Shown in pieces: positions 16,011 through 48,984 of a DNA stretch of 64,000 nucleotides. This stretch comes from Escherichia phage BUCT632. Each line of letters opens with the position of its first letter. Within the stretch, counting starts at the first letter, position 1. A program made the translations under genes and the position numbers. The notes under the pieces are model-generated. The model saw only the letters and a list, made by a program, of their open reading frames with translations, searched no databases and was not told the origin of the DNA. Location: sequence record PQ488502.1. One strand, given 5' to 3'.

Positions 16011-16036
16011 AACTAAACTAGCACGAGAAAAATGCT

Positions 16037-16627: not shown

Positions 16628-16635
16628 ACACTATA

Positions 16636-16763: not shown

Positions 16764-16776
16764 ATTAAAAATTCAT

Positions 16777-17078: not shown

Positions 17079-17084
17079 AACAAT

Positions 17085-17162: not shown

Positions 17163-17351
17163 TTTTAATAGGGGATTTCGAAATGAAAGTATTTCGATTA
17201 GTAGTAAGTGACAAACGTTTAGGTAAGAATACCTCAAAATCATTACTTGCTCATTATGGTAAAAATTGGGATGAAGTAATGGTAGAGTTTAATACTAATC
17301 ACCCTTACTTGAAAGTTCACTCTATTAAAGAAGTATACAATGGTTACTAAT

Positions 17352-17430
17352 AGATCGCTAGCTCAATAGGTTTAGTAGCATCCGACTTTTAATCGGAAGG
17401 TTCTGGGTTCGAGTCCCAGGCGATCTACCA
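17352..17430 (+). tRNA. tRNA-Lys (anticodon UUU)
   Basis: acceptor AGATCGC/GCGATCT, anticodon arm TCCGA-CTTTTAA-TCGGA, T-arm CTGGG-TTCGAGT-CCCAG, CCA. Confidence 0.8.
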
Positions 17431-17448
17431 ATTTCAAGAAAAACGCAG

Positions 17449-17477
17449 TTGCTTGATGCTTAATTTCTTGTTATAAT
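17449..17477 (+). promoter_or_regulatory. PN25-type sigma70 promoter ahead of structured RNA and tRNA-Ala
   Basis: TTGCTT 17449-17454, 17-nt spacer, TATAAT 17472-17477. Confidence 0.6.
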
Positions 17478-17516
17478 ATTTATATAAATTGATGAGGAGA
17501 AATCCTCATCATAGTT

Positions 17517-17701
17517 CACTAAGGTATTAGCTCGACCTAGGACTGGCTGCCAAAAAGCACGATCCCCATGATTCGGGAGAAGTTCTAGATTGGTCCACTA
17601 GATTCAGCGGCAACTGAATAGTGTATTGGGTTTGCGAGATGACGCAGTTCCTTCCGCTCGAAGCGAAGGTGCTGTAGTTACGCCGAGCTAATAGCCTTAG
17701 T
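17517..17701 (+). other. Structured ORF-free element closed by about 17-bp long-range stem (one bulge); candidate ncRNA or RNase III processing domain
   Basis: ACTAAGGTATTAGCTCG (17517-17534) pairs with CGAGCTAATAGCCTTAGT (17684-17701); internal hairpins. Confidence 0.4.
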
Positions 17702-17715
17702 AAACTAAAGAATTT

Positions 17716-17794
17716 GGGGAATGGGTCTGCATGGAGTGGACACCTCGCTTGCACCGAGGACATCAGAACGGTTCGATTCCGTTATTCTCCACCA
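17716..17794 (+). tRNA. tRNA-Ala (anticodon UGC)
   Basis: acceptor GGGGAAT/ATTCTCC, anticodon arm CCTCG-CTTGCAC-CGAGG, T-arm AACGG-TTCGATT-CCGTT, CCA. Confidence 0.75.
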
Positions 17795-17799
17795 AATAC

Positions 17800-17876
17800 G
17801 CGTGATTGATGGAATTGGCATACATACCGTCCTTAGAAGTCGGGTTTTGAGGGTTCGAATCCCTTGTCACGCACCA
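17800..17876 (+). tRNA. tRNA with UAG anticodon (Leu by anticodon) and short variable arm
   Basis: acceptor GCGTGAT/GTCACGC, anticodon arm CCGTC-CTTAGAA-GTCGG, T-arm GAGGG-TTCGAAT-CCCTT, A73, CCA. Confidence 0.55.
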
Positions 17877-17987
17877 AATTTGATGGTCAGAGTAAATTAA
17901 ACCTACTATCTCGGTTGAGCTGTTTTAATGGGTTCGAATCCCAGCGAGGCGTAACTGCCTGGTGTGATAGAGGCATCATCTTATTAT

Positions 17988-18078
17988 TGGAAGAGCAAAT
18001 CGAATTGGCGACGAAAACCGCTTGGAAAGTGGCTGACTGGTAAAACGGCTTGAGAGTTCAAATCTCTCCTCTTCCGCC
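17988..18078 (+). tRNA. tRNA-Ser (anticodon GGA), type II
   Basis: acceptor GGAAGAG/CTCTTCC, D-stem TCG/CGA, anticodon loop TTGGAAA, long variable arm, T-arm GAGAG-TTCAAAT-CTCTC, CCA. Confidence 0.6.
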
Positions 18079-18098
18079 AAACACTTGAGGTAATAATA

Positions 18099-18446
18099 AT
18101 GCTAGCAAAAGATAAAGCTCTAGAGTTTTTAGCATCTTTAGATGAAGATAAGATTATAGATGCTGCTGAAAAAGCTGGAATGCCAGATTTAACATATCTG
18201 GAACGTGCTATTATTGCTCGTGATAAACTACAGAAAGAGTTTGCTATTGCTCAGGAGGAGTTTTATACTCGCTATAACGCTCTTACTAAGCAAATTGAAA
18301 ATGAGTGTTCTCATACTTGGGGAGTAACAGAAAACCTAGGTAATGATCACGATGGCTGGTCTAAAGTAAAAATTACCTACTACCATCGTAGGACTTGTAA
18401 AATTTGTGGAAAAGTAGAAAACTTCACTAGTACGAGTGACTATTAG
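18099..18446 (+). CDS. Hypothetical protein with C-terminal zinc-ribbon-like Cys/His cluster
   Basis: 115-aa ORF; CSHTWG...HRRTCKICGKVE. Confidence 0.45.
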   Translation: MLAKDKALEFLASLDEDKIIDAAEKAGMPDLTYLERAIIARDKLQKEFAIAQEEFYTRYNALTKQIENECSHTWGVTENLGNDHDGWSKVKITYYHRRTCKICGKVENFTSTSDY

Positions 18447-18459
18447 TATAATAAATACT

Positions 18460-18549
18460 AGAAGATAGGACGTAGTGGTATGTAACTGGTCTTGAAAACC
18501 AGCCCGCTGTAGTGATACGGTGATGGTTCGACTCCATTATCTTCTGCCA
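18460..18549 (+). tRNA. tRNA-Ser (anticodon UGA), type II
   Basis: acceptor AGAAGAT/ATCTTCT, anticodon arm CTGGT-CTTGAAA-ACCAG, long variable arm, T-arm GATGG-TTCGACT-CCATT, CCA. Confidence 0.75.
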
Positions 18550-18569
18550 ATTAACTATAAGGAAATCTT

Positions 18570-18743
18570 ATGAGCAAAACAGTTACTGTAACAATGAAGG
18601 ATGGTAAAAAATTTAAAGCATGTCTTCATGAAACAGATAAGGGATGGATGGCTTATTTGCCACACCTAGATTCCACCGGGTACGGAATGACCCAACGTGA
18701 AGCTATTGTTGATGCTTTAAATGAGGCTTCTGCTGGTTTATAA
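18570..18743 (+). CDS. Hypothetical small protein
   Basis: 57-aa ORF with AAGGAAA RBS, below the ORF-track length cutoff. Confidence 0.3.
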   Translation: MSKTVTVTMKDGKKFKACLHETDKGWMAYLPHLDSTGYGMTQREAIVDALNEASAGL

Positions 18744-18750
18744 AAATTCT

Positions 18751-18882
18751 TGAAGTATGCCGGAATTGGTAGACGGGGCTGCCTAAAAGGTTTATAGAGA
18801 ACATCCACTCTCTACAACATACCTCATAAAGCGGCTGAGATAAATGGTCTATCTCGTGAAGGTTCAAGTCCTTCTGCTTCTT
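18751..18882 (+). tRNA. Oversized tRNA-like gene (132 nt, Leu-like D-arm, type II variable arm) with 48-nt insertion in anticodon loop; no encoded CCA
   Basis: acceptor TGAAGTA/TGCTTCT, D-region CCGGAATTGGTAGACGG, anticodon-stem GCTGC(18778-18782)/GCGGC(18831-18835) enclosing 48 nt with internal hairpin, variable-arm hairpin GAGATA/TATCTC, T-arm GAAGG-TTCAAGT-CCTTC. Confidence 0.4.
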
Positions 18883-18996
18883 GATACATCTATGGCTCAA
18901 AGTGTAACGGTGCTATTTGATGCTCTTAGTAAGACTTCCCCGACATGCGTTCGGGAGTAAGCTGCTAAGGCTAGAGTAGAAGAGTTTCTGAGAGCC

Positions 18997-19116
18997 GCCA
19001 CAATTGAAAATTCGTACTCGTCTTGAGCTGCGTGCAATAGGAGATAACTTGATTAGTATTCTAGAACATGCTAATTGAGGAAGGTTTCGCTAACCCTGCG
19101 AGTTTTCAATTGTGGC
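18997..19116 (+). other. Long-range 14-bp stem whose 3' arm overlaps the tRNA-His 5' end; candidate processing hairpin
   Basis: GCCACAATTGAAAA (18997-19010) pairs perfectly with TTTTCAATTGTGGC (19103-19116). Confidence 0.4.
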
Positions 19117-19188
19117 TATATTATAATTGGTTAATGATCCTGATTGTGAATCAGGCCTATGTGGATTCGAATTCCACTAGCCACCCCA
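19112..19188 (+). tRNA. tRNA-His (anticodon GUG)
   Basis: acceptor GTGGCTA/TAGCCAC, anticodon arm CCTGA-TTGTGAA-TCAGG, T-arm GTGGA-TTCGAAT-TCCAC, CCA. Confidence 0.75.
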
Positions 19189-19213
19189 AATTAACTTAAA
19201 TAGGAAATAAAAT

Positions 19214-19414
19214 ATGGCTGATTTCTGCAAACAATGCTCTATTGATATGTGGGGTAAAGATACTGGTGATCTTTCTGGTTTGATTACAGAAGCTGAAGTT
19301 AAAGAAGGTTACGGTGCTGTTGTGCTTTGCGAGGGATGCGGAGTTATTCGTGTAGATCATGAAGGCAAACGTCTAGAAGAACCAGAACCAATAGCCACGG
19401 TTCCTGTAGAGTAA
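19214..19414 (+). CDS. Hypothetical small Cys-rich (zinc-ribbon-like) protein
   Basis: 66-aa ORF with CKQC...CEGC pairs. Confidence 0.45.
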   Translation: MADFCKQCSIDMWGKDTGDLSGLITEAEVKEGYGAVVLCEGCGVIRVDHEGKRLEEPEPIATVPVE

Positions 19415-19422
19415 AGAATTAT

Positions 19423-19498
19423 TGGAGTGTAGATCAATTGGCAGATCGTCGGCCTCTGACTCCGAAGGTTCCTGGTTCGATCCCAGGCACTCCAGCCA
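19423..19498 (+). tRNA. tRNA-Gln (anticodon CUG)
   Basis: acceptor TGGAGTG/CACTCCA, D-stem GATC/GATC, anticodon loop CTCTGAC, T-arm CCTGG-TTCGATC-CCAGG, CCA. Confidence 0.65.
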
Positions 19499-19504
19499 AA
19501 CAAT

Positions 19505-19580
19505 TGGAGAGTAGTGTAACGGTTAGCACAACGGCCTTTGACCCCGTTAATGGTAGGTTCGATTCCTCCTTCTCCAGCCA
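19505..19580 (+). tRNA. tRNA-Gln (anticodon UUG)
   Basis: acceptor TGGAGAG/TTCTCCA, D-stem GTGT/GCAC, anticodon loop CTTTGAC, T-loop TTCGATT, CCA. Confidence 0.65.
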
Positions 19581-19588
19581 AATAATAA

Positions 19589-19664
19589 GCGGTTAAGCAC
19601 ACGGGTTGTGTCGCAGGCCTTCCAAGCCTCGCTGAGTAGGGTTCGATTCCCTCTAGCCGCTCCA
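19589..19664 (+). tRNA. tRNA-Gly (anticodon UCC)
   Basis: acceptor GCGGTTA/TAGCCGC, anticodon arm AGGC-CTTCCAA-GCCT, T-loop TTCGATT, CCA. Confidence 0.65.
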
Positions 19665-19680
19665 ACTTTAAGGAAACATT

Positions 19681-19932
19681 ATGCACGTTTTTGAGTTTCG
19701 TAATAAAAGTACCGATAAACGAGTTATTGTTATTGGAGAAACATACCGAGCATACGAACAAACTGACGGCTCTGTTATCCTGAATGATGAGAAAGGAGGT
19801 TTTAGCTTTTATCCAGAAGAACCTTATGAAGAGTTTCGAAAACAATTTAACCTAGACTGGAGAAAGCATTTAAACACTGTTGCTTCATCCGTAGTATTGC
19901 CAACTACCAGTACTGTACTCTCTAATGGCTGA
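19681..19932 (+). CDS. Hypothetical protein
   Basis: 83-aa ORF with AAGGAAA RBS after the tRNA triplet. Confidence 0.45.
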   Translation: MHVFEFRNKSTDKRVIVIGETYRAYEQTDGSVILNDEKGGFSFYPEEPYEEFRKQFNLDWRKHLNTVASSVVLPTTSTVLSNG

Positions 19933-20075
19933 TAACCTAAAAGTCAAGATCGATAAACAAAAGAAACGTGTAGAAGTAGAGATTGGTGAAGAACGTGTAG
20001 CCTTCACCTTTGAATTTCTACAACAAATGGCAATGACAGTTATGACTGACAAGTCTCTTGTTATTGAAAAAGAAA

Positions 20076-20099
20076 TCCCGTTGAAATAACGGGTTTTTG
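20076..20099 (+). terminator. Rho-independent terminator
   Basis: CCCGTT-GAAATA-ACGGG hairpin followed by TTTTT. Confidence 0.7.
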
Positions 20100-20173
20100 C
20101 TCCTAAAGCATTGTTGGCGATGCAGTTGCCTTGTAAGCATCTGAACCGGGTTCGATTCCTGGTGGGAGCACCA
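20099..20173 (+). tRNA. tRNA-Thr (anticodon UGU)
   Basis: acceptor GCTCCTA/TGGGAGC, D-arm GCAT-TGTTGGCG-ATGC, anticodon loop CTTGTAA, T-arm CCGGG-TTCGATT-CCTGG, CCA. Confidence 0.7.
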
Positions 20174-20188
20174 AATTTAAAAATTCAT

Positions 20189-20217
20189 TTGCTTTCTCTC
20201 TTATTTCTTGTTATAAT
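20189..20217 (+). promoter_or_regulatory. PN25-type sigma70 promoter
   Basis: TTGCTT 20189-20194, 17-nt spacer, TATAAT 20212-20217. Confidence 0.6.
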
Positions 20218-20247
20218 ACTTGTATAAATTAACGAGAGGGAAACCAA

Positions 20248-20541
20248 ATGAAACGTTATCTTTCTGTTATGTTCCAAACTGGTGGTCAACGCTATACCTA
20301 TGAATTTCCTAGCTCTTGGAAAATCAAAGAAGGTGATCAAGTAGTTGTACTAACACCGCGTGATGGGTACAAGGTAGTAACGGTTAAGCAAGTCTTTCCA
20401 AAAGATTATACGCCATCTAAGTCTATTAATTATAAGATGATTCATGGTGTAGTTCGTCAAGTACCCCGAGTGGACATCGAGGTCAAAGTAGATAAAGATG
20501 GTAAACTTAAATATACCTCTTGCTTAGACGAGTTGCTATAA
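20248..20541 (+). CDS. Hypothetical protein
   Basis: 97-aa ORF downstream of promoter. Confidence 0.5.
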   Translation: MKRYLSVMFQTGGQRYTYEFPSSWKIKEGDQVVVLTPRDGYKVVTVKQVFPKDYTPSKSINYKMIHGVVRQVPRVDIEVKVDKDGKLKYTSCLDELL

Positions 20542-20747
20542 TGAGAATTACTTTCACAGAAAAGATTATGGGTGATGGTGTTATGATCATTACCGCATGG
20601 GATGGTAATCAGTGGTGTAGTGTTTCAGGTATTAAGCCTGAAGAACAAACACTAGAAAATATCTCAAAGATTAAGCGAAGAATGGCAGAACGTGCACGAC
20701 TTCCAGGTGCGCCTAGAAATGGTAAACGTTCTGCAATTAAATGTTAA
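20541..20747 (+). CDS. Hypothetical protein
   Basis: ORF from ATG 20541 overlapping upstream stop (ATAATG). Confidence 0.4.
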   Translation: MRITFTEKIMGDGVMIITAWDGNQWCSVSGIKPEEQTLENISKIKRRMAERARLPGAPRNGKRSAIKC

Positions 20748-20748
20748 T

Positions 20749-20825
20749 GCTTCGGTAGCTTAGCGATCTAAAGCACTCGGCTGATAACCGAGAGATCGGG
20801 GGTTTAAATCCCTCCCGGAGTACCA
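20749..20825 (+). tRNA. tRNA-Ile (anticodon GAU)
   Basis: acceptor GCTTCGG/CCGGAGT with G-U pairs, anticodon arm CTCGG-CTGATAA-CCGAG, variant T-loop TTTAAAT, CCA. Confidence 0.65.
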
Positions 20826-20931
20826 AATTTAGGAATTAAGACTATGCGTCCAGGAAAGTTTAAAAAAGCTAATTGGTCTAAAGAGTATAAAGAATACTTA
20901 CTTAGTCTAATAAAACATAATAGTTAGTTGG

Positions 20932-21007
20932 CAGAGTGGTTATGCACCTCCTTCATACGGAGCGACTACAGTGGTTCAAATCCACTACTAACTACCATTA
21001 AAATAGC
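20932..21007 (+). tRNA. tRNA with CAU anticodon (Met or Ile2)
   Basis: acceptor AGTTAGT/ACTAACT, anticodon loop TTCATAC on CTCC/GGAG stem, T-arm AGTGG-TTCAAAT-CCACT, CCA. Confidence 0.6.
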
Positions 21008-37257: not shown

Positions 37258-38142
37258 ATGTATAACTTTAAAGATAAACTAAGACAAAATGCTGGCAAAG
37301 GAAAGGCAAAGGAGAATAATAGTGTTCCTAATGCTAAAGTACTTCCGTTTCCTGAACTAACTCAAGAAGAAAAAGATAAACTAGCATTTATGTTCGATGC
37401 ACTTATAGGATTAAGTGGACGACTGTACTCCACCCTTAGTCTTAATGAGAAACGTCTAGTAGAGATGTTTTGTAAACGTTACCCAGTTACTTCAAAGGGC
37501 AATGCCCATAAAGAAGGTGAAAAAGCATTCACAGTCTTAAAAATCAGTGCATATGCACATCGTTTCTTAGTTTATGGGTTACAGATGGAATACTTCACCA
37601 TTCCACCATTTAAGTCATTTCACATTTTTGAAGATGAACGAATGAATATTGATGATCTCTATGGAGATACGTACAAATATTCAGGGAGTCCATTCCATGA
37701 TGCATTAAGAAGCTATCCTACTAGTTATTTACCAGTTAGGGCATCACAAGGTAAAGCTAGCATCTTTGCGGTATACTCAGGATCTAAAGCATCTGATCTA
37801 GAAACTTATATATTTAAAGAGCGTAAATCTGTGCTTCCAGATGAAGCATTATATAATAATCCATTGCTTCCAGAAAAAGAACCAGAGAAAATTGATGTAA
37901 CCCCACCAACCCCATCTGATTCTCCTTATCTGAAGTTTGAAAATCAAGTTGGATGGGTTCTAGAAATGGGTGTAGCCTCACCGCTTGCTGCAGCATTCAT
38001 CAATAGGTATCTAGAAATTCCTGACGAGTTCCACTCACGTTATAATACGAATATTCAGATTACAGATGAATTAATAGCCATTGCAAAAGGTACACCTACT
38101 GACACTGAGGCGTATCAAAAAGCATACCAAGAGTTACTATAA
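37258..38142 (+). CDS. Hypothetical protein
   Basis: 294-aa ORF with RBS GAGAGA; last plus-strand early gene before the repeat locus. Confidence 0.5.
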   Translation: MYNFKDKLRQNAGKGKAKENNSVPNAKVLPFPELTQEEKDKLAFMFDALIGLSGRLYSTLSLNEKRLVEMFCKRYPVTSKGNAHKEGEKAFTVLKISAYAHRFLVYGLQMEYFTIPPFKSFHIFEDERMNIDDLYGDTYKYSGSPFHDALRSYPTSYLPVRASQGKASIFAVYSGSKASDLETYIFKERKSVLPDEALYNNPLLPEKEPEKIDVTPPTPSDSPYLKFENQVGWVLEMGVASPLAAAFINRYLEIPDEFHSRYNTNIQITDELIAIAKGTPTDTEAYQKAYQELL

Positions 38143-38562
38143 GATCCTGCATGTCTCGGTGCACAATACCTGTACCGAGACTCAAATACAAACTCTCGTT
38201 GACAGATAGCTAAATGTATGTTATCATAACTCTATGAGTTAATAGAATTAACCATTTAGAGTTGCCACACAGAAGGTGTGGTGGTTCAGTAATTTAAAAT
38301 TACTAACTTGTAGCGGAGGATACGGAGCGACAGGACAAGTTAATAAGTAATTTAATATAAATTGCTAGAAACATCACGAGACCTTCTGGCGGGGCAAAGC
38401 TCTATATGAGAACCCTGGGGGGATCTTATATTTAAAATAAAAGTAAAACTTTTGACCACATAATTTACATTCAAGATGATACACCGGTTGCCGCTCATCT
38501 GCTAGGATGGCACAACACTTTCCTAAAAACTCCAGAGTTCTCACGAAATATCACACTTCTAG

Positions 38563-38640
38563 TGGGCGGTTCTCCTAAGTTTCTAGGAACATATACTAGG
38601 CGGTTTAATACAGGGCGGTTATTGGGAGGGCGGTTATTTC
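38563..38640. repeat. Four direct copies of GGGCGGTT spaced about 20-25 bp
   Basis: GTGGGCGGTT, TAGGCGGTT, AGGGCGGTT, AGGGCGGTT within 80 bp. Confidence 0.6.
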
Positions 38641-38679
38641 TAGAAGGCATTTTTCCAAAACACATTTCCAGAAATTACT

Positions 38680-39279
38680 GTCGGATTTGCACACTGACAT
38701 AAGTTTAAAAACTGGTCGGATTTGCACAATTGCCTAAGTTTTTAGGAACATATAATCTCCTGAAAATGGCAGCATTATTTCGGGCCGAAGGCCCATGATT
38801 GCCTGAGTTTTTAGAGCCACAGAAATTTTCACTTGTCAAGCTATTTTGCCCCATTTTGCTAATAAAATTTTACTTTATCTCACCCCAAGCCCAATTAACC
38901 CAAATCTTCTCAACTCTTCCCCAAAAACGCAGCAAATCAGGCGTTGCACGCCACCAATGCTGCTCCTCTCGCAGTTCCCCCTATTTTCTCTCGCTCTCTC
39001 ATCTTATCCCCAAACCCACACAATCACACACCCTCTCATCGAAGTCACAAAAATCTTGTCGGATTCGCACATCTTAATCCTAGAAAAACCGTGTCGGATT
39101 TGCACATACCCCACAGGATTCGAACGCAGTTCGAGATTGCTGGAGTTTTTGGGAGACAGATTCGTCACTCTCACGAATTTATAAATTTTTCGGGTCGGAT
39201 TTGCACACTACCAAAAATTGTCGGATTTGCACATACACGCCCGCACGTAACACCCGTGGAGCAATGTCGGATTTGCACA
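38680..39279. repeat. Seven direct copies of 14-bp iteron-like motif GTCGGATTTGCACA
   Basis: copies at 38680, 38715, 39058 (variant GTCGGATTCGCACA), 39093, 39193, 39219, 39266; irregular spacing. Confidence 0.8.
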
Positions 39280-39282
39280 AAA

Positions 39283-39306
39283 GCGCAGGGCAATTGCCCT
39301 GCGCTA
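39283..39306. repeat. Perfect 24-bp palindrome AGCGCAGGGCAATTGCCCTGCGCT
   Basis: 10-bp GC-rich arms around AATT centre. Confidence 0.75.
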
Positions 39307-39530
39307 AATGAGAATAAAAATAAGAATCATTCTCATTTAAAAAGCGGAATGAGAATGATAATAATTCGCATTTAGAAAGTGAAACGATTCTCACTTAGAA
39401 AGTGGAATGATTCTCATTTAAAAAACGGAATGAAAATTATTCAGGAAGTGAAACGATTCTCATTTAGAAAGTGGAATGCGAATGATAATGATTCGCATTT
39501 AAGAATGGAAGTGAGAAACACTGCTATTTA
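39307..39530. repeat. AT-rich degenerate tandem repeat array (units like GAATGATTCTCATTTAAAAA)
   Basis: at least 8 related units of about 20-25 bp with GAATGA/TCTCATTT cores. Confidence 0.65.
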
Positions 39531-39615
39531 AGTTATCCACAGACTTATCAACAGCACGATTTGACTTGACAAAATCCTAGCCATTTTGAAGCGTTATTAA
39601 CAGACTTATCCACAG
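39523..39615. promoter_or_regulatory. Two DnaA-box consensus sites (TTATCCACA)
   Basis: TTATCCACA at 39523-39531 and 39607-39615, exact matches to E. coli DnaA box consensus. Confidence 0.6.
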
Positions 39616-39960
39616 CTTATCCTACTGTATAAATATACAGTATTCCTATGCAGTGAATAATTCTAATATACCGCTAAAACGCTCTCAAAGATTGGAGGAG
39701 GCTTGAAAATTAGTTAGCCCGCTAACGATCACACAAGGCGACACGTAACACCCTAATCATTAGCAGGCTAACCATCGCGGGCGCTGTCAAATAAGAATGA
39801 TTCTTATTTGAGAATTGGGGGCACTTCCTGATAGTTGCGCCCCGTGATTATTATAGTAGTGGGCAATCGTTACGCTTTGCCCACTCCCGCCACTCATCTT
39901 GATGCCTAGACTTGCGACGGCGTACTAAAAACCGTTTGTACCAGTGATTAAACCATCGTT

Positions 39961-40164
39961 TCATAAATCTTCCTCCGGTAGTCGATGCGTGATTTTTTCC
40001 TCTTCCCCGTAGGAATCCACTAAATACTGATAATAACCATCGTGATCATAAATCACTTTATCATACTCGCCACGCTCGACCGCTTGTCTATTTTCCGGCG
40101 TATCGGGCACGTAAAAAACATCAACCATTGTGCTAGTTTTGGTCACAACAATTTTATTGCTCAT
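39961..40164 (-). CDS. Hypothetical protein
   Basis: 67-aa minus-strand ORF, first of a minus-strand block. Confidence 0.4.
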   Translation of the reverse strand: MSNKIVVTKTSTMVDVFYVPDTPENRQAVERGEYDKVIYDHDGYYQYLVDSYGEEEKITHRLPEEDL

Positions 40165-40216
40165 AATAACGCTCCGTTACTATATAATCTCGTTGCAATA
40201 CACCAAAATTATATAG

Positions 40217-40432
40217 TTACTCATATTCTAGCTCGAAAATATCCTCACCATATAATTTGATTAAATCAACTAAATAAAACGCTGTGCCAGTATTATTATT
40301 TCTCCTTATAAATCTATGATTCGCGTCTTTAAATACAGTGAATACATCACCTGTTTTACCTACTCCCCATAAATCCTGTGTTAATTTTACCCGTTTAACC
40401 TTTAGCAACATATTCCAAGTAATTTCATTCAT
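40217..40432 (-). CDS. Hypothetical protein
   Basis: 71-aa minus-strand ORF. Confidence 0.4.
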   Translation of the reverse strand: MNEITWNMLLKVKRVKLTQDLWGVGKTGDVFTVFKDANHRFIRRNNNTGTAFYLVDLIKLYGEDIFELEYE

Positions 40433-40788
40433 TGCGCCACCTTTCGAAACGCTGTTTCAATACTATCCGCAGTGGATTGAATATATGCGCCTTTCATTAT
40501 CAGGCGCTCGGTGCATACTTTGCGGAAAATATTAATAAAATCATCTTCATTTTCTGCAATTAATGCTTCCCCCATAACTTGAACGTCACAAGATGCAAAG
40601 GTCAAAAATTGAAACGCTAGTTCACGGGCAACGACCGCATTGATTTTATAATGCGCCTTGCCCTCATAAATATTAATAACGCCCTTATAAGCTGGGGAAA
40701 GCTGATTTAAGTAGTTTGCTAGTAATGCCGGACGGCAATTAGCAACAAAACGATTACCTTCATAAATAACCATTTGACAACCTCCCAA
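40429..40788 (-). CDS. Hypothetical protein
   Basis: 119-aa minus-strand ORF overlapping downstream gene by 4 nt. Confidence 0.4.
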   Translation of the reverse strand: MGGCQMVIYEGNRFVANCRPALLANYLNQLSPAYKGVINIYEGKAHYKINAVVARELAFQFLTFASCDVQVMGEALIAENEDDFINIFRKVCTERLIMKGAYIQSTADSIETAFRKVAQ

Positions 40789-40896
40789 TTATATAGCCGG
40801 ATAATAACATAAAGATCCCCAATGAAAGGGGATCATTCTTAAATAGGGTGGCTGTAAAACCGCCAACCATTGCAAGGATAATAACAATAACGCTTT

Positions 40897-41109
40897 TCAT
40901 AGCACCCCACGAAACGCAGCGTAAAAGGTGGCAAAATGTTTAACCGTTTCAGCGATCACGTTGCCGCGCTTATCAAATTTCTTTTCTGTAACACGAAAAG
41001 CGTTTTTATTACGTGCTACATATTCGATTTTACAATCTTCCCGCTCGAACGTGTTAACATCCACCAGCTTAAATCCTTTCGAACGTGCAAGAGAAACGTT
41101 ACGGATCAT
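40897..41109 (-). CDS. Hypothetical protein
   Basis: 70-aa minus-strand ORF. Confidence 0.4.
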   Translation of the reverse strand: MIRNVSLARSKGFKLVDVNTFEREDCKIEYVARNKNAFRVTEKKFDKRGNVIAETVKHFATFYAAFRGVL

Positions 41110-41307
41110 TTTTATTCTCCTTTACTAGTCATGCAGCCCAGCAGATAAGAAAACGCAGCAATGCCAGCGCCAATAATAACGGCGTGAACGCCAAAAGCTA
41201 TTGCAAATAACGATAAAATAGCGCCCAAGATACCCGCCAGAATAGCTCGAAAAATAATCATTTTTATTCTCCTAGTCAGTGGGGGATATAATATCCCCCG
41301 TTACTAA

Positions 41308-41538
41308 TTACATTAAAACAATTTTTGCGGCTTGTTTTTTAGTGCAATGTTCAGCTTTCAGGGTATCCAGCAAAAAGCCCGCCGTTTGCTGATCGATTTT
41401 ATCGGCGTTGTATAGTTCTTGGATGGTGTTATAAGTTTTAGCAATGCCGAACTCCTGCACCATTTCATGAATAACAACGCGATTGGACACCCAACCTTGA
41501 GCGGTAAACAGATGAGTAGCAGAAGAGTAAGCAACCAT
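41308..41538 (-). CDS. Hypothetical protein
   Basis: 76-aa minus-strand ORF. Confidence 0.4.
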   Translation of the reverse strand: MVAYSSATHLFTAQGWVSNRVVIHEMVQEFGIAKTYNTIQELYNADKIDQQTAGFLLDTLKAEHCTKKQAAKIVLM

Positions 41539-41642
41539 TTTAAGCCTCCAAATTTTTGGGAAATTTTCAATCCACCGTTTTGGTGTAAAGGCATTATAAC
41601 AAAAAAGGCCACCATAAAAGGCGACCTTTACAAAACTTTACA

Positions 41643-42137
41643 TTAGACTACTTGTAAGGATTCAACATTGAAACATCGTTTCAATTCGTCATGCAAAACA
41701 GCGTATTCCTCCCATCGGGTACTATCAGGAATATAAACAAGCTGTTTTAATCGATTTGCGTATATTACCGCTTTGTTATCGACTATCTCGACGCCGCCAT
41801 ATTTAATAATTAATTTCATGACGGAATTAATAGGATCGCCGCCGTTTACATATGTGCCGGATTTACTTAGCTGATAATGATAAAGGCTTGCATATACGTT
41901 TTCATTTTCATACCATTCGCCAGTTTCTTCGTCTTCATAGCCATCACTACCAAAACGAGAAGCATTATCAACAGCCATTTCCTGAGCAAAAGCGTCCAGA
42001 TCCGTACCAGCAGGAACAAAGTATTCCTCGGTGTTCCCTTCCCCGCAATAGCCAGTATGACAATCGACTAAAATGATCATATCATGTTTAGCCGTGCTTA
42101 CTTCCCCTAGCGAGAAGCCGTATTTTTCCTCAGCCAT
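41643..42137 (-). CDS. Hypothetical acidic protein
   Basis: 164-aa minus-strand ORF. Confidence 0.5.
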   Translation of the reverse strand: MAEEKYGFSLGEVSTAKHDMIILVDCHTGYCGEGNTEEYFVPAGTDLDAFAQEMAVDNASRFGSDGYEDEETGEWYENENVYASLYHYQLSKSGTYVNGGDPINSVMKLIIKYGGVEIVDNKAVIYANRLKQLVYIPDSTRWEEYAVLHDELKRCFNVESLQVV

Positions 42138-42202
42138 TTATTAGCCTCCTATTAATTAACAAGGGAATAGTAAAGTGGGGAAATAATCCCCACTAAATAT
42201 TA

Positions 42203-43213
42203 TTACTCGATTTCGGTGCTAGTGGTAAAAGTAGAAATATCAATACCTTTCACCATTTCATCAATCATTTCAGCGATGTTAAAACTTTGCACCATTTCCA
42301 GCATTGCCGCTTCCATAGCCGCCCCCGCTACCGCTTTCGCCTTTTGGTTACTCGGTGCGTACTGGTCAACCGCCACACTCAGCAGGTTAGCAATCACTAC
42401 TCGACCGATCGGCGTATCAATATAACCTTTAATCATAAACGGTGCTTTTTTAGCCGCTACTTTCGTAATTTGAGTCAGTGCAATTTTACCCGCTTCCAGT
42501 TTTGCAGCATTTACAACAGCGGATTTATTAGCGGCAACGATGTTAGCAATCTTGGTCATGGTGTTTTTTCCTTTGTTTTCAGTAGTTTGAGTATTAACGC
42601 TTTGAGTGTTAGAATTTACAGCATGGTTTTCTACGCTGTCAATAATCTGATCTTCATCTTTCCAGAAAGAAAAACCAGCGCTTTCTATATCCCCATCATA
42701 AATATACGGGTATAACTCCCGTGGTAACAAAAAATTACCATCGCCATCAAAAGCCATTATACCAGTATATTGAGATCCGTCGTTATCCGGCTTATGCCAT
42801 CCAGCGGGTAAATACTTCCAGATAACATCTAAAAATCCCTCAATGCTAGAAAGTCCATTTATCAGATCAAGCCCAATAAGCTCGAAACCATTTATATTAA
42901 ATGATTGACGGCCTGAATTGCTATGATACGCAACAATATTATTACCCTGCGTAATAATAAAATCGGCATCCGGCCCCGCTCCCCTGCCTGTAAAGATATG
43001 GCAATCCCGATTATATAAAACTAGCGTTGCCCCTTGTTTATATAACGGCAAAAAACCATCCATATCATAAGCGTCATAATCATCAAAAAAGTTTTGATGA
43101 ATAGTCTCAATCTTGTTAATAAAATGTTTAATGCTGGTTGACTTGCTACCGTCCAGCAGGTTGCGCAATGCACCCTTTAATACGGTGGCATTATCAGGTT
43201 TATACAGCCTCAT
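42203..43213 (-). CDS. Hypothetical protein
   Basis: 336-aa minus-strand ORF; start preceded (on minus strand) by AGGAGGCCGAACAA RBS. Confidence 0.55.
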   Translation of the reverse strand: MRLYKPDNATVLKGALRNLLDGSKSTSIKHFINKIETIHQNFFDDYDAYDMDGFLPLYKQGATLVLYNRDCHIFTGRGAGPDADFIITQGNNIVAYHSNSGRQSFNINGFELIGLDLINGLSSIEGFLDVIWKYLPAGWHKPDNDGSQYTGIMAFDGDGNFLLPRELYPYIYDGDIESAGFSFWKDEDQIIDSVENHAVNSNTQSVNTQTTENKGKNTMTKIANIVAANKSAVVNAAKLEAGKIALTQITKVAAKKAPFMIKGYIDTPIGRVVIANLLSVAVDQYAPSNQKAKAVAGAAMEAAMLEMVQSFNIAEMIDEMVKGIDISTFTTSTEIE

Positions 43214-43505
43214 TTGTTCGGCCTCCTCGTTAATCGGTGAGTGAATGATATAGATATTTGTTCACTAGGGGCAAGAAAAAAGAAAATGTTTTTTATTCCT
43301 TGCCTAGCGCCTATTTTTATGCTAACCGCGCAGCGGTGTAATAAAGAGCAAAAAACGGCGAAGCCACCAGGCCGCAGCATTGAGGCTTTACTTTACTATT
43401 ACCTTGCAGCGTTTAGCTCGTTAGAATGCGATTTAGGCCGCTTAAAATTGATTGCAGTTGTTAACACTACCTTTTTACCCTGTATATTTATACAGTGGAA
43501 TAACC

Positions 43506-43872
43506 TGTGGATAAGTCTGTGCAAAAGTCCTTATATCGCCGCCTATCGTGTCAAGTTATTTCGTGCTGTGGATAACGTTGTGGATAACTTAAATGATAGT
43601 GGTTCTCACTTAGGCCGATAGTTTCTTATAGTTATTATTTCTCATTAATTTATAAGTATATTATATATTATGAAATAGTTAGTTGGCTAATGAGATTTTT
43701 CGTGATTAATAGTCTGCTAATAGTTTACTCTGTTACAGTCCACCAGCATGATTATCATCCTAGCAATTATTATCCTGCTATCTTTCCGATACATACTAGC
43801 AAACAAAAGTCAATTAATTTATTTCATAAAATAAGTAGTTATCCACTGGAAAATAAAAGTCAAGTGGATAAC
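43506..43872. promoter_or_regulatory. Cluster of five DnaA-box matches in divergent intergenic region
   Basis: TGTGGATAA at 43506-43514, 43567-43575, 43579-43587; TTATCCAC at 43839-43846; GTGGATAAC at 43864-43872. Confidence 0.55.
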
Positions 43873-44751
43873 TAGGAAAATTTCATTTTTGCTTTTGGGG
43901 ATAAGTTATCAACAAGGCTAGAATGCGCCTAAAACGCCCTAGAACGCGATGAAGTTTTTAGCCATCCCATCATAAGGGGATAGGCCGTTTATCGCTGCCA
44001 CGAGCTTTTTGGATTTTGTCAAGTAGGGCAAAGCAAATATAAATGAAAAAATTACTTGCCTATCTGCTTTATTTTGTGGTATTCGCGCGCCCGTTTCTTT
44101 TAATTTTAGGCCATCGCCGCACGGTGTCCGGTGAGTTTTGTCTTTACGTTTCTTTACAAAAATAAGGTTGCGCCATTTTCGGGAATCCCCTATTATTTAT
44201 CACGTAGGGCGGCAATGACGAACTACACGGCGGGAAGTTTACCGCCACGCTCTTTAAAAATTGGGTACATCTTAAAGCCTATCGGCGGTAAACTTATACA
44301 TTATAAGGAATCGACGATATGAAACAAACGCTTTTGATCACTGGCAAGCCTATTAAGGCACTAGATAGCAAAACAAAAAATTTGTTGACAGTAGCTCAAA
44401 GATCAGTAAAATATAGATTCACGCAGTACAAGAAAGGCCGCCAGCAAGGTTTAGAAATGATCTGGCGCAATATTATGATTGACCTGAAGGAAAATCATAA
44501 AAAATTGCAAAAAATTGTTTGACACCCTAGCCGATAGGCTTTAAGATGTACTCAGTTCGATAAGAGCGATAACTTGATAAAATTTGACGGTCGGTGCTTA
44601 CCATAATGCATCCCGCCCCCTAACGGGATATAGCGGCCTACGTGGAGTTCTTTAAATTGATTATAGCGGCGGGAGGATTGTTACTTATTACCTGCTAGTA
44701 TTTTCTAGTAGGTAATGCGGAACAATCCCCAAATAACTAGGAGTTTATACT

Positions 44752-45003
44752 ATGCAAAACGTTATTACCGCGCCGAAAGTTGGTCAATCCGTCTTCATTC
44801 CTTTCGTTACTAAAACGGATGAATTAACCGGAAAAGCCGAACGTATTAAAGGTGCGGCGCTTATGCCGTTCGATACAATCGACGCGGTATATGCTGAAAA
44901 TGAACGCAGTAACAACGGCAAGCCGATTTATAACGTTCGCGTTAAATCCGGCGACGTTGTAAAGGTTGTTCAACGCAACGAAAAATGGGAAGCTGTATTG
45001 TAA
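44752..45003 (+). CDS. Hypothetical protein
   Basis: 83-aa ORF with AGGAGTTTATACT-ATG initiation context shared by neighbouring genes. Confidence 0.45.
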   Translation: MQNVITAPKVGQSVFIPFVTKTDELTGKAERIKGAALMPFDTIDAVYAENERSNNGKPIYNVRVKSGDVVKVVQRNEKWEAVL

Positions 45004-45104
45004 TGTAGTGTTAACTTTATATTCCCCTGAAATATGGGGAATATATGGATTAACATTTAGTTAATCATTAAATCCCTTAAATTAAACTAATAGGAGTTTT
45101 TACC

Positions 45105-45512
45105 ATGACTAACGCAAAAACCGCAAAATTCGCATGGAACGAAGAAAACACTCAGAAAGCTGTTTCTATGTATCAGCAGTTAATCAACGAAAACGGTTTA
45201 GATTTCGCAAATAGCGACGGTTTAAAAGAGATTGCAAAAGCAGTAGGCGCGGCTTCTCCCGTATCCGTTCGGTCAAAATTGACCAGTGCAAAAGCCTATC
45301 AAAAAAGCGATAAGCCGCGTAAAGTTGGCGGCGGTAGCTCTGTGCGTAAAGCTCACTATGTGCGCGTTATCGCTAAACATGCTATCGATTCCGGCATTAT
45401 CAAAGACGCCGATGATCTGGCAAGTCTGGAAAGTGCAAAACTTGAAACGCTGGACGCAGTAGCGCAATTGTTAGGCGTTGCTGATGAAGTAAAACAAGCC
45501 GCAGGCGAATAA
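45105..45512 (+). CDS. Hypothetical protein
   Basis: 135-aa ORF with shared AGGAGTTTTTACC-ATG context. Confidence 0.5.
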   Translation: MTNAKTAKFAWNEENTQKAVSMYQQLINENGLDFANSDGLKEIAKAVGAASPVSVRSKLTSAKAYQKSDKPRKVGGGSSVRKAHYVRVIAKHAIDSGIIKDADDLASLESAKLETLDAVAQLLGVADEVKQAAGE

Positions 45513-45513
45513 T

Positions 45514-45557
45514 AGTTATACCTTGCCCCCTTCTAGTGAGGGGGCAATAATATAACT
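45514..45557. other. Long palindromic hairpin (no U-tract) after gene
   Basis: AGTTATACCTTGCCCCC...GGGGGCAATAATATAACT. Confidence 0.5.
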
Positions 45558-45602
45558 GTTTAGCGATAGTTATTTTCTTCCCTTAAATCAGGAGTTTTAA
45601 AA

Positions 45603-45800
45603 ATGATTTTCTTCCCTACTGAATCTTTGATTCTAGGCTTGTTTATTATGGCGGCCTCATTATTGTTCGCTTATTTTCAAAATGATTTAGATTCGTATTA
45701 TTTTAAACGTAAATCTAAGTTAGCAAAACGTTTAGGTCTGCTTTGTTTTATCGCTGCCGTTGCTTGTGGTGTTAGTTCTAGCCTAGTGCCTTTAAATTAA
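45603..45800 (+). CDS. Hypothetical small membrane protein
   Basis: 65-aa ORF, two hydrophobic segments. Confidence 0.35.
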   Translation: MIFFPTESLILGLFIMAASLLFAYFQNDLDSYYFKRKSKLAKRLGLLCFIAAVACGVSSSLVPLN

Positions 45801-45890
45801 TGTTGCAAATTATAACGCCTATTATTTGAGGCGTTATATTTGGCAATATTGCCATTATTAATCTAATCCCTTTAATGGAGTTTTATTACT

Positions 45891-47561
45891 ATGATTATTT
45901 CCGCAGAAAAACAAACCGTTATCCTGAAAATGGCCGCTGACTTTAATTTCTATGGTAAACGTCTGCGCGCTACTAAACTGGAGGTCTGCGACGATATATC
46001 AAAAGCAGTCTACGATACAACGAAACATTCTACCGCCATTTGTGATTGGCTGGAAGCAAACAAACCAGCTAAACCGAAAGCGGCAAAAGTAGCAAAAGCC
46101 ATTAAAAACGACGAGCGCCCCGAAGCGGCTGGGATTGTTTCTAGTACGGTTGAGCAATGGGAAGTAAAACAGGGTAAACGTTTTATTATTACGTCGATTC
46201 AGAATAATACTTTCCCGCATAAAAACTTTTTAGCAAGTCTGGAAAAATTCGCTGAATATATCGGTGCCGATTTGCTTGTTTCTAAGTATATTTATAATAA
46301 AAACGGCTTCCAAAATGGAGAAGGTGCAGACGGAATCAAATATGATTCTGCGTTTGATAAATATATTTGCAGCAAAAACGTGTTTTTAAATAACCGCCGT
46401 TTTGCTTTCATGGCTGAAATTAATGTTTTGCCTACCGCAGATTATCCGCTTTCTGGATTCGCAGAAACTGCAACGGCTTTAAATATTGAAGGTCTGGCAA
46501 TTGGTCACGCTAAAATTACCGCTGAAAGCGTACCAGCTTTAAAAGGTGAAGTAGTGCGCCGTATGTACTCAACCGGAACGGCAACCCTCAAAAACTACAT
46601 TCAGCAGAAAGCAGGACAAAAGGCCGAGGCGCTGCATAACTTCGGTGCGCTGATTGTTGAGTTCGACGAGGACGGGGAATTTTTTGTTCGCCAGCTTGAA
46701 ACGATGGACGAAAGCGGGGTATTTTATGATCTGAATGTGTGCGCTACTCCTGCCGGATGCTATGAGACATCGGGGCATGTTTTAGGCTTGCAGTATGGTG
46801 ATATTCATGCAGAAAAACTAGATGAGGCTTGCGCTCAAGCGTCTTGGGGTCATGGTGATACTTATGGGCTTGTGGATATTCTCAAACCGAAATATCAGTT
46901 TGTACATGATGTGCATGATTTTACATCCCGCAATCATCATAACCGCGCTTCTGGTGTATTCCTAGCGAAACAGTACGCCGCCGGACGTGATAAGGTTATT
47001 GATGATCTTATCGATACGGGGCGCGTGCTGGAATCAATGGAGCGTGATTTTTCTCAAACAATCATTGTTGAATCAAATCACGATTTGGCGTTATCCCGTT
47101 GGCTGGATGATCGAAATGCTAACATCAAAGACGATCCAGCAAACGCCGAACTATATCACAGCCTAAACGCTGCAATCTATGCGGCTATTGCAAAGCAGGA
47201 CGATACTTTCAACGTGCTAGATTATGCCTTGCGTAAGGTAGCAGGTTGTGAATTTAACGCCATTTTCCTGACCACTGACCAATCATTTAAAATTGCAGGC
47301 ATTGAATGCGGCGTACACGGTCACAACGGCATTAACGGCAGCCGTGGCAACCCGAAACAATTTAAGAAATTGGGCAAGTTAAACACGGGGCATACGCATA
47401 CCGCCAGCATTTACGGTGGCGTTTATACCGCTGGCGTTGCTGGTAGTCTGGATATGGGTTACAACGTTGGCGCGTCAAGCTGGACGCAAACGCATTTAAT
47501 TACATACGCCAACGGCCAGCGCACTTTGATTGACTTTAAAAACGGCAAGTTTTTCGCATAA
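45891..47561 (+). CDS. A1: A1-like pre-early protein with calcineurin-like metallophosphoesterase motifs
   Basis: 556 aa (length matches recalled T5 A1); motifs GDIHAEKLD, HDVHDF, GHTHTASIY. Confidence 0.6.
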   Translation: MIISAEKQTVILKMAADFNFYGKRLRATKLEVCDDISKAVYDTTKHSTAICDWLEANKPAKPKAAKVAKAIKNDERPEAAGIVSSTVEQWEVKQGKRFIITSIQNNTFPHKNFLASLEKFAEYIGADLLVSKYIYNKNGFQNGEGADGIKYDSAFDKYICSKNVFLNNRRFAFMAEINVLPTADYPLSGFAETATALNIEGLAIGHAKITAESVPALKGEVVRRMYSTGTATLKNYIQQKAGQKAEALHNFGALIVEFDEDGEFFVRQLETMDESGVFYDLNVCATPAGCYETSGHVLGLQYGDIHAEKLDEACAQASWGHGDTYGLVDILKPKYQFVHDVHDFTSRNHHNRASGVFLAKQYAAGRDKVIDDLIDTGRVLESMERDFSQTIIVESNHDLALSRWLDDRNANIKDDPANAELYHSLNAAIYAAIAKQDDTFNVLDYALRKVAGCEFNAIFLTTDQSFKIAGIECGVHGHNGINGSRGNPKQFKKLGKLNTGHTHTASIYGGVYTAGVAGSLDMGYNVGASSWTQTHLITYANGQRTLIDFKNGKFFA

Positions 47562-47568
47562 TTAAATT

Positions 47569-47594
47569 TATAAGCTGGAAATATTTCCAGCTTA
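47569..47594. other. Perfect palindromic hairpin after A1-like gene
   Basis: ATAAGCTGGAAATATTTCCAGCTTAT. Confidence 0.5.
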
Positions 47595-47626
47595 TACCCT
47601 TATTAAATTAATTGGAGTTTATAACT

Positions 47627-48019
47627 ATGAAAAAGCAAAATATCCCATTCGATCGCGCTCAATCCTCAATCGTTCTGGTTTATTCTAATGGTGAACGTTA
47701 CCACGTCGAGGCGGGGCACGTTGTTGATGATTTAATCGAGTTTAACGAGGCGTTACAGATCACGACTTTCGCCTATACGCAAGGCCGCGCAAGTAGTCAC
47801 ATCAAGGCCGCTGGCGTTTATGTTGACACGGTGAAACAAGAAACGATTATCATCGACGCCGTAAAATCCGGCCTAGCCTTTGCAGTTGTCGCGCCTTGCC
47901 CCGCTTGCCTAGATGATCAGCTAACGAGTGCAAAGGTATATACCTGCGCGGGTATTCGTTCCAGTGTATCAGGTGAGGATGTTAGTTTTATCGCTGATGC
48001 GTTGGCTTATGGTCTTTAA
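47627..48019 (+). CDS. A2: A2-like pre-early protein (by position and size)
   Basis: 130-aa ORF immediately downstream of A1-like gene; ATG 47627 after GGAG. Confidence 0.45.
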   Translation: MKKQNIPFDRAQSSIVLVYSNGERYHVEAGHVVDDLIEFNEALQITTFAYTQGRASSHIKAAGVYVDTVKQETIIIDAVKSGLAFAVVAPCPACLDDQLTSAKVYTCAGIRSSVSGEDVSFIADALAYGL

Positions 48020-48098
48020 TAGTTAATTTATTATTACCCGCTTATAAATAGCGGGTAATGCTGAATTAATCTAATCCCTTAAATGGAGAACGTAACAA

Positions 48099-48833
48099 AT
48101 GAATAAAGCTATTATGAATATTTCCCGCAGCTTCCCGCATATTTCCCGCGTCATGATTTGGGATTTAGACGGCACTATCATTAATTCTTTCCATCGTGTA
48201 GCGCCTTGCTTTGATAGTGAGGGCAATTTAGATTTAAATAAGTATAAAAATGAAGCGTGTAAACATCATTTAATAATGCAGGATTCTTTATTGCCATTGG
48301 TTGAATACATGCGCCAATGTATGAATGACGCAAATACTTTAAATATTATTTGTACCGCTCGACTAATGAGCAAGTCGGACTATTATTATTTGCGTAAACA
48401 AGGTCTGCGCGGTCGTGGTAATAGTAATATCCGCGTGTTTTCCCGCGATACACTGCATAAATATTTTAAAGCTGATAAGGTTAGCGAGATATACCACAGC
48501 AAAGACGCAGTTTATAAATCTTATTATTTTGAATTATTTAAACAGCTATATCCGAACGCTGATTTTACGATGATTGATGATCATAAAGGCGTATTATCAG
48601 CGGCGGCATCATACGGATTTAAAACGCTGGACGCGCAAGCCGTTAACGATATTCTATCAATCGGGGTGGCATTGATAGGTGAAACCTTTATCGATGAATC
48701 GCTCGATGATGATAATGATTATCAGTTCCTAGCCGATCGTTTGAAATTATGTTGGGAAGGTATGACCGAGGAAGAACGCGCAGAATATAGTTGCAGCCCG
48801 CAACAATACATGGAGAAATTAAAAGTTGCATAA
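48099..48833 (+). CDS. dmp: HAD-family 5'-deoxynucleotidase (dmp-like)
   Basis: 244 aa; HAD motif I MIWDLDGTII near N-terminus; size and position consistent with recalled T5 dmp. Confidence 0.5.
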   Translation: MNKAIMNISRSFPHISRVMIWDLDGTIINSFHRVAPCFDSEGNLDLNKYKNEACKHHLIMQDSLLPLVEYMRQCMNDANTLNIICTARLMSKSDYYYLRKQGLRGRGNSNIRVFSRDTLHKYFKADKVSEIYHSKDAVYKSYYFELFKQLYPNADFTMIDDHKGVLSAAASYGFKTLDAQAVNDILSIGVALIGETFIDESLDDDNDYQFLADRLKLCWEGMTEEERAEYSCSPQQYMEKLKVA

Positions 48834-48847
48834 TAATTAAAGTTGAA

Positions 48848-48884
48848 ATAGTCACGGTGTGTAACGATAACATGCCGTGACTAT
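48848..48884. other. Hairpin with 10-bp perfect stem after dmp-like gene
   Basis: ATAGTCACGG...CCGTGACTAT. Confidence 0.5.
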
Positions 48885-48984
48885 TAGCTTGCTAAGTACC
48901 GGGCGGTAATGAGACTTATTCTCATCTCGGGGGGCACTGGACACACCTCCATGTGTAATCTTATGAAATTTGGCAAAAGTCAAA

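Follow-up and report, generated by a model that had tools for sequence, protein, structure and literature searches.

A conserved non-coding locus of Escherichia phage BUCT632 very likely corresponds to the injection stop region at the right end of the T5 long terminal repeat

Introduction

What is the role of about 1.8 kb of phage DNA that is filled with direct repeats, palindromes and DnaA boxes and appears to hold no gene? The question is raised by positions 38143..39960 (the interval) of a 64,000-nucleotide stretch of Escherichia phage BUCT632 (PQ488502.1), which was analysed whole and is called the window here. A first-pass annotation, made from the letters of the window, had placed these repeats at a T5-type boundary of injection stop and terminal repeat, between pre-early and early genes, and had likened them to a replication origin or protein-binding control region. 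In T5, the stop of DNA entry at 8% of the genome and its restart by A1 and A2 have been a question since Lanni's work in the 1960s. Our sequence comparisons indicate that the locus is, very likely, a conserved, non-coding part of a T5-like phage (Tequintavirus), namely the right end of its long terminal repeat, in the region of the injection stop signal (iss). We are just as confident that the interval is a composite of cis-acting DNA elements, and neither a gene nor an origin. The locus would thereby be the cis-acting half of the T5 stop and restart problem.

This architecture is not new: the T5 reference record annotates it, and a comparison across 25 phages appeared in 2020. As first written, the finding is a rediscovery that adds nothing alone; its interest lies in the mechanism and in small additions. 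The additions made here are the position of the repeat end within a block of ~120 bp, the retention of a 14-bp iteron in Klebsiella and Serratia phages, a LexA-like box and a compensatory hairpin. Among these, the conserved LexA-type box, the invariant block at the repeat end and the iteron kept across host genera offer leads on the old question.

The interval is collinear with the end of the T5 terminal repeat

The whole window represents a T5-like genome whose orientation is reversed with respect to T5 (NC_005859). We observed that the interval, which is the non-coding gap between the homologues of T5.018 and T5.017, is collinear end to end with T5 9158-10935, at ~84-88% identity overall and >95% in several blocks. 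Comparisons reaching beyond it gave 84.6% identity for T5 9370-14000 against window 39681-35071, and 87.8% for T5 8936-9279 against the window. Matches to the interval were found in 457 phage records, nearly all of them T5-like Salmonella and Escherichia phages. When the annotations of the T5 record are mapped base by base, the iss, the major single-chain interruption and the end of the left terminal repeat all fall within this collinear region, between the 018 and 017 homologues, which bears out the boundary proposed by the first-pass annotation. The predicted positions and the neighbouring genes are as follows:

37258-38142, + strand: T5.018 homologue, an early gene (294-aa ORF, open reading frame)
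39961-40164, − strand: T5.017 homologue, the last pre-early gene (67-aa ORF)
39978-38884: predicted iss, from the T5 record annotation (T5 9140-10149) and the base-by-base map
39282|39283, + strand: predicted major DNA single-chain interruption (the 7.9% nick; T5 9748/9749, − strand), at the left edge of a 24-bp palindrome
38813|38814: predicted end of the left terminal repeat (T5 10219; left terminal repeat annotated 1-10219), from the T5 record and the map
38814..48943: terminal repeat of 10,130 bp, collapsed into one copy, the left end mapping to 48943

The layout of this part of T5 was reportedly described by Heusterspreute et al. in 1987 and Wang et al. in 2005. Davison (2020; bioRxiv 10.1101/866236) named it Repeat Region 3, the right part of the T5 terminal repeat, and listed its contents as palindromes, DRE and DRA repeats, nine DRD repeats and an IRD'-spacer-IRC' unit in which the DnaA boxes form pairs separated by 3 bp. 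An inverted copy of the unit (IRC-spacer-IRD) lies 3 kb further left, giving eight DnaA boxes per repeat in almost all of the 25 T5-like phages compared (Davison 2020). We assigned the names DRE and DRD to the window repeats by position. Position and flanking genes are shared with Repeat Region 3, as is the order of elements: IRD'-spacer-IRC', DRE array, nick palindrome, DRD iterons, repeat end, and then more DRD and DRA-type repeats. The two loci differ in that the window has seven iterons where T5 has nine, one 23-bp unit more in the AT-rich array, and a nick palindrome that is perfect over 24 bp where that of T5 is imperfect. In addition, the 270 bp beside gene 017 are unrelated to T5 and are without its canonical terminator. 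Relatives carry the elements in the same order, so that the homologous repeat organisation on which the first-pass annotation had staked its reading is present.

The interval is non-coding

The claim that some 1.8 kb contains no credible ORF is supported by several lines of evidence. None of the eight mechanical ORFs in the interval (up to 143 aa) matched a PHROG, and the indels that separate relatives in the interval are 1, 2, 7 and 10 bp long, which is incompatible with a reading frame. We therefore rejected coding potential. The long open frames exist because the strand is G-poor. A tRNA search of the interval with ARAGORN found none, and an Rfam search of the interval with permissive filters returned no family at E<=1. 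The ORFs called here in many GenBank records are thus spurious, which is a warning for annotators.

Conservation was assessed by aligning 18 relatives, drawn from Tequintavirus and Epseptimavirus, to window 38460-39700. In Epseptimavirus loci whose flanking genes are beyond the reach of blastn, the non-coding DNA can still be aligned at 74-77%. A Klebsiella phage and a Serratia phage (A1 protein 60% identical) keep the same order of GGGCGGTTAT repeats, iterons, a gap, iterons and DnaA pairs. The elements that make up the locus, listed from left to right in the window and followed by the inverted module copy, are:

38470..38525: near-invariant block TCAAGATGATACACCGGTTGCCGCTCATCTGCTAGGATGGCACAACACTTTCC, across Tequintavirus and Epseptimavirus
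38564..38637, + strand: GGGCGGTT(AT) repeats, shared by Klebsiella and Serratia relatives and found as well where an HNH-gene insertion begins in two relatives
38680-38693 and 38715-38728, + strand: outer iteron pair, outside the terminal repeat (T5 DRD repeats)
38760..38880: near-invariant block of ~120 bp, 96-98% identical across Tequintavirus and Epseptimavirus
39058..39279, + strand: inner iteron cluster, five copies, inside the terminal repeat
39282-39305, + strand: perfect 24-bp palindrome AGCGCAGGGCAATTGCCCTGCGCT, with GCGC at both ends
39307..39530: AT-rich repeat array (T5 DRE region), seven copies at 39315-39521 with 23- or 35-bp spacing
39532..39616, + strand: two DnaA-box pairs, 3 bp within each pair (T5 IRD'-spacer-IRC')
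39623..39642: LexA-like SOS box TACTGTATAAATATACAGTA, 19/20 against the E. coli LexA consensus TACTGTATATATATACAGTA
43419..43611, − strand: inverted second copy of the DnaA/LexA-like module (T5 IRC-spacer-IRD, Repeat Region 2)

The repeat end lies within the most conserved part of the locus

The same base marks the repeat end in three independent records, namely those of T5, SIY1lw and Sepoy (PhageTerm), with the sequence reading ...CCTGAGTTTTTA|GAGCCACAG... at 38813|38814. The comparison with annotated T5-like genomes suggested by the first-pass annotation gives agreement with the T5 record for the iss and with these three records for the repeat end; a physical genome terminus at this position is predicted by homology only. 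The junction falls inside the block at 38760-38880, which is the most conserved part of the locus and the sole part that blastn still detects in Klebsiella Sugarlandvirus, where it is partly recognisable. A hairpin, GGGCC-GAA-GGCCC, is found at 38782-38794 within the block. Its conservation makes the block a candidate terminase cut and recognition site.

Since the sequence past 48943 runs directly into DNA homologous to the part of T5 that lies before the right terminal repeat, the window holds one collapsed repeat, and its source is a circularised or concatemer-like assembly, not the true linear genome. In practice, this gives annotators of the collapsed assembly the limits of the terminal repeat (38814-48943). 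No motif shared by the two repeat ends was seen by eye.

As a separate observation, the motif ATTGCCTNAGTTTTTAG recurs three times, at 38729-38745, 38798-38814 and 39136-39152, in two cases immediately following a hairpin. In the middle copy, the last base of TTTTTA is also the last base before the repeat end.

Iterons flank the repeat end in a single orientation

The first-pass annotation counted seven copies of the 14-mer GTCGGATTTGCACA. Seven are indeed present, all on the + strand, of which six are exact (38680, 38715, 39093, 39194, 39220 and 39266) and one, at 39058, carries one mismatch; the chance expectation is 0.02 matches in the whole window. The iterons flank the repeat end on both sides in a single orientation, and we found none at the left repeat end. 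Across genera, Klebsiella and Serratia phages included, the iteron reads GTCGG-WWWY-GCACA, with both ends fixed and the middle variable, and as such it is unchanged across four host genera.

We considered whether the iteron could be a DnaA box. The sequence ATTTGCACA is one mismatch from the DnaA-type TTWTNCACA, and in some relatives the copies read TTTTGCACA. A pure DnaA site is nevertheless unlikely, because the variable part is the T-rich half while GTCGG and GCACA are fixed. With its fixed ends and variable middle, the iteron looks more like the site of a dedicated protein than like a variant DnaA box. Phage A2 is a candidate binder: its homologue (45105-45512, beside the A1 homologue at 45891-47561) matches the PHROG "DNA binding protein". 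Davison (2020) gives the repeats no function, in keeping with the first-pass annotation, which named no binding factor for the iteron.

A second repeat family, GGGCGGTT, had been reported in four copies. Three exact copies are found in the interval on the + strand (38564, 38613 and 38628), together with the near-exact variant AGGCGGTT at 38598. The window contains a fourth exact copy, at 36823 on the − strand, outside the interval.

The predicted nick site borders a perfect palindrome and an AT-rich array

The 24-bp palindrome described by the first-pass annotation is perfect, and the site homologous to the T5 nick lies at its left edge, reading ...CACAAAA|GCGCAGGG... with A|GCGC at 39282|39283, a conservation of sequence alone.

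The AT-rich array of degenerate repeats was likewise confirmed. Its GC content is 29-31% and its copy number varies among relatives. The estimated blender shear point of T5 (about 9618) maps within the array. Searching the array, which adjoins the DnaA boxes, for oriC-type 13-mers gave none; it is built of 23-bp repeats.

Two database records touch on the nick. In the GenBank record of PECP14 the genome ends 3 bp from the nick-homologous site (39279 vs 39282|39283), and the annotated direct terminal repeat (DTR) end of Kenya-K20 (39234) lies about 50 bp from it. Both ends may reflect a conserved nick read as a terminus, the fit being loose for Kenya-K20. Nicks in submissions of T5-like genomes may thus be mistaken for termini.

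A LexA-like box accompanies the paired DnaA boxes

Both DnaA-box consensus sites named by the first-pass annotation are exact. Each belongs to a pair: TTATCCACA at 39533 is paired with the variant TTATCAACA at 39545, and TTATCCACA at 39606 with the variant TTATTAACA at 39594. Beyond these, exact DnaA boxes occur in the 64 kb only at 43506-43587, as a second cluster. This is the inverted module copy, 3.9 kb further inside the repeat, with four consensus boxes at 43506, 43518, 43567 and 43579 and CTGTATATTTATACAG at 43480-43495. The window therefore has exactly eight DnaA boxes per repeat, matching the count of Davison (2020).

At 8 bp from the last DnaA box we observed the LexA-like box (39623-39642), which resembles the LexA SOS boxes of Enterobacteria in 19/20 positions, in both CTGT/ACAG half-sites and in its TA-rich spacer. 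It differs from them in its setting, as it lies in the non-coding repeat of a virulent phage and not at a known damage-inducible promoter. Shuffled sequences gave no LexA match with <=3 mismatches. The inverted copy has a LexA-like box of its own at 43478-43497 (16/20). Most relatives that cover the position, including a Klebsiella phage, have the 19/20 box at the equivalent spot, and three (fp01, L6jm and a Serratia phage) have an 18/20 variant. Scanning IMG/VR for the DnaA/LexA module recovered it only in T5-sized contigs of 104-123 kb. LexA and SOS are not mentioned in Davison (2020), and our literature searches for T5 and LexA, which did not extend to the 1987, 2005 and 2015 (Davison) papers, gave nothing relevant. 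Likewise, the accessible literature makes no mention of a LexA box or a packaging signal at this locus.

Further promoter-like, structured and strand-biased elements

The remaining features of the interval are:

38199..38227, + strand: strong sigma-70 promoter-like site TTGACA-17-TG-n-TATCAT (11/12), downstream of the stop of the T5.018 homologue, pointing into non-coding DNA and away from any ORF
38850..39055: strand-asymmetric tract, G-poor on the window + strand and G-rich on the T5 + strand, starting about 40 bp inside the repeat end
39120..39134, + strand: 6-bp hairpin TCGAAC-GCA-GTTCGA, followed by GATTGCTGGAGTTTTTGG
39660..39688, − strand: promoter-like site TTGAGA-17-TAGAAT (10/12), weak, just upstream of the LexA-like box and directed toward DNA not yet injected
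39690..39960: variable segment that differs from most relatives and replaces the terminator annotated after T5 gene 017

The promoter-like site at 38199-38227 has an extended -10 and is invariant in 13 sequences. It belongs to the part outside the repeat (38143-38460) that is 97-99% identical to T5, compared to 84-90% for the coding flanks. We also considered RNA structure in 38230-38460 and rejected it, since the two-haplotype substitutions at 38287-38310 are not compensatory. For the site at 39660..39688, a LexA-repressed promoter was rejected because the -35 is not conserved in about half of the relatives.

The strand-asymmetric tract has a GC skew of -0.5 to -0.7 (down to -0.69). In the hairpin at 39120-39134, four of the six pairs change on both sides in relatives, in a compensatory manner, and 88% of cells are paired versus 25-47% with a slid partner. 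Phage NR01 and one IMG/VR genome have an HNH endonuclease gene inserted within this hairpin; the insertion carries its own GGGCGGTTAT repeats and a promoter-like sequence.

A model for stop, restart and packaging

Read from inside to outside (right to left in the window), the locus would present the DnaA pairs and the LexA-type box, the AT-rich array and the GCGC palindrome at the nick. These would be followed by five iterons, the strand-skewed tract and the near-invariant block with the repeat end and, outside the repeat, by two more iterons, the GGGCGGTT repeats, the other invariant block and a promoter-like site. The left end of T5 leaves the capsid first and is injected first. By analogy, the left end of BUCT632 would enter first and transfer would pause on arrival of the locus at the envelope. 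Expression of the pre-early genes, which lie to the right of the locus in the window, would follow, and A1 and A2 would restart transfer. The pause would most likely come from proteins docking on the DNA of the locus: the consensus sites suggest host DnaA and LexA as candidates, and A2 may dock on the iterons just beyond the shear point. LexA beside DnaA on the last DNA to enter might repress the outward-facing promoter or stiffen a nucleoprotein block. Destruction of host DNA driven by A1 might in turn alter how far LexA or DnaA occupies its sites and thereby affect when second-step transfer takes place.

In the right-hand terminal repeat, this sequence may serve as the site of the terminal cut by terminase (38813|38814). 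Since the left end leaves the capsid first, the right end would be packaged first, and the invariant block with its flanking iterons is a good candidate for a packaging recognition signal. The stop role and the packaging role are not exclusive. We regard the specific division of labour, with the DnaA-pair/LexA-box module as a putative host-protein docking site in a stop-or-go decision and the iterons and invariant block as the T5 packaging signal, as rather doubtful.

Several points weigh against the account given so far. The iss, nick and termini of BUCT632 are transferred from T5 by homology and are predicted to that extent, and other records place the repeat end elsewhere (chee24 and saus132 at ~39021, Kenya-K20 at 39234). 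A terminase role for the locus would draw on the extreme conservation of 38760-38880. LexA cleavage cannot be required for restart, given that T5 forms plaques on recA strains. Ejection is complete in vitro with FhuA proteoliposomes, which means that DNA alone does not stop transfer. T5 remains viable when the stretch from hegG to 017 is deleted; the deletion should remove the inverted DnaA/LexA-like copy, which is hence probably dispensable.

Alternative explanations

The resemblance to a replication origin pointed out by the first-pass annotation is real, but it is a resemblance only. As in oriC and iteron-plasmid origins, where DnaA binds its boxes, the AT-rich array melts and iterons bind an initiator, clustered DnaA boxes in one orientation (four DnaA or DnaA-like boxes) lie directly beside a 220-bp array of ~30% GC, accompanied by seven 14-bp direct repeats in the same orientation; Davison (2020) also calls the arrangement reminiscent of oriC. 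However, the origins of T5 were mapped near the genome centre by electron microscopy, and the replication genes are part of the second-step DNA, so that they are not yet in the cell when only the locus DNA has entered (Davison 2020). Unlike in those origins, no initiator-like gene is linked to the iterons, the flanking genes having no Pfam match and only PHROGs of unknown function, and a second, inverted copy of the module sits within the pre-early region, where one would hardly expect an origin. We therefore consider an origin very improbable. A functional non-coding RNA, transcribed from the promoter-like sites at 38199 (+) or 39688 (−) with the hairpins as RNA structures or terminators, appears improbable as well. 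The invariance of the 11/12 promoter match with its extended -10 and the compensatory changes in the 39120-39134 hairpin would fit such an RNA, and the window + strand allows for the G·U pairs. Yet Rfam gave no match at the permissive threshold, a canonical terminator is absent, the substitutions at 38287-38310 are not compensatory and the 39688 site lacks a conserved -35, while the hairpins could act equally well as single-stranded DNA.

Two further proposals concern the division of roles within the terminal repeat end. Davison (2020) suggested that membrane-associated DnaA, bound to the 4+4 boxes, holds back the incoming DNA until A1/A2 release it by a cut on the right side of the block. The eight boxes have the same paired, fixed geometry in the window as in the 25 relatives, and the arrangement is kept in Klebsiella and Serratia phages. 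We nevertheless think it unlikely that such a tether explains the locus: it is itself a proposal, the viable hegG-017 deletion is expected to remove four of the eight boxes, and the iterons, the AT-rich repeats and the LexA-like box have no part in the model, a point that Davison (2020) admits for the other repeats. It is possible, and we hold this tentatively, that the locus is primarily a packaging or terminus signal, with the iterons and the invariant block recruiting terminase and the injection stop being secondary or separate. The 120 bp that hold the repeat end are the best conserved and the only part detectable by blastn in Klebsiella Sugarlandvirus, iterons in one orientation stand on both sides of the cut, and packaging would start from the right end if, as we infer, it runs opposite to injection. 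This arrangement is reminiscent of lambda cosN/cosB and the T7/T3 pac signals, which may be comparable in having a precise terminus in highly conserved sequence with flanking motifs of one orientation; in lambda, the cosB R sites flank cosN. The comparison is one of analogy, and the repeat of T5-like phages measures 10 kb as opposed to 12 nt or 160 bp. On the other hand, the left repeat end has no iterons and the two junctions share no obvious motif by eye, the terminase role would be an extrapolation from conservation, and the iterons also start just beyond the shear point and the nick, so that a role in restart fits equally well.

Minor observations

The variable segment contains a palindrome, TCAAATAAGAAT-G-ATTCTTATTTGA, at 39787-39811. 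Fur boxes in the AT-rich array were considered and found to be weak: four matches with <=5 mismatches (best 4) are copies of one repeat, although such Fur-like matches (39316-39502) are enriched compared to local shuffles. Within the window as a whole, the closest match to a Fur box is that at 48705-48723 (GATGATGATAATGATTATC, two mismatches to GATAATGATAATCATTATC), within the dmp-homologue ORF (48099-48833) and near the left repeat end, possibly by chance. Outside the terminal repeat, 22 tRNA genes are clustered on the + strand at 9080-20997, as is typical of the early regions of T5-like phages.

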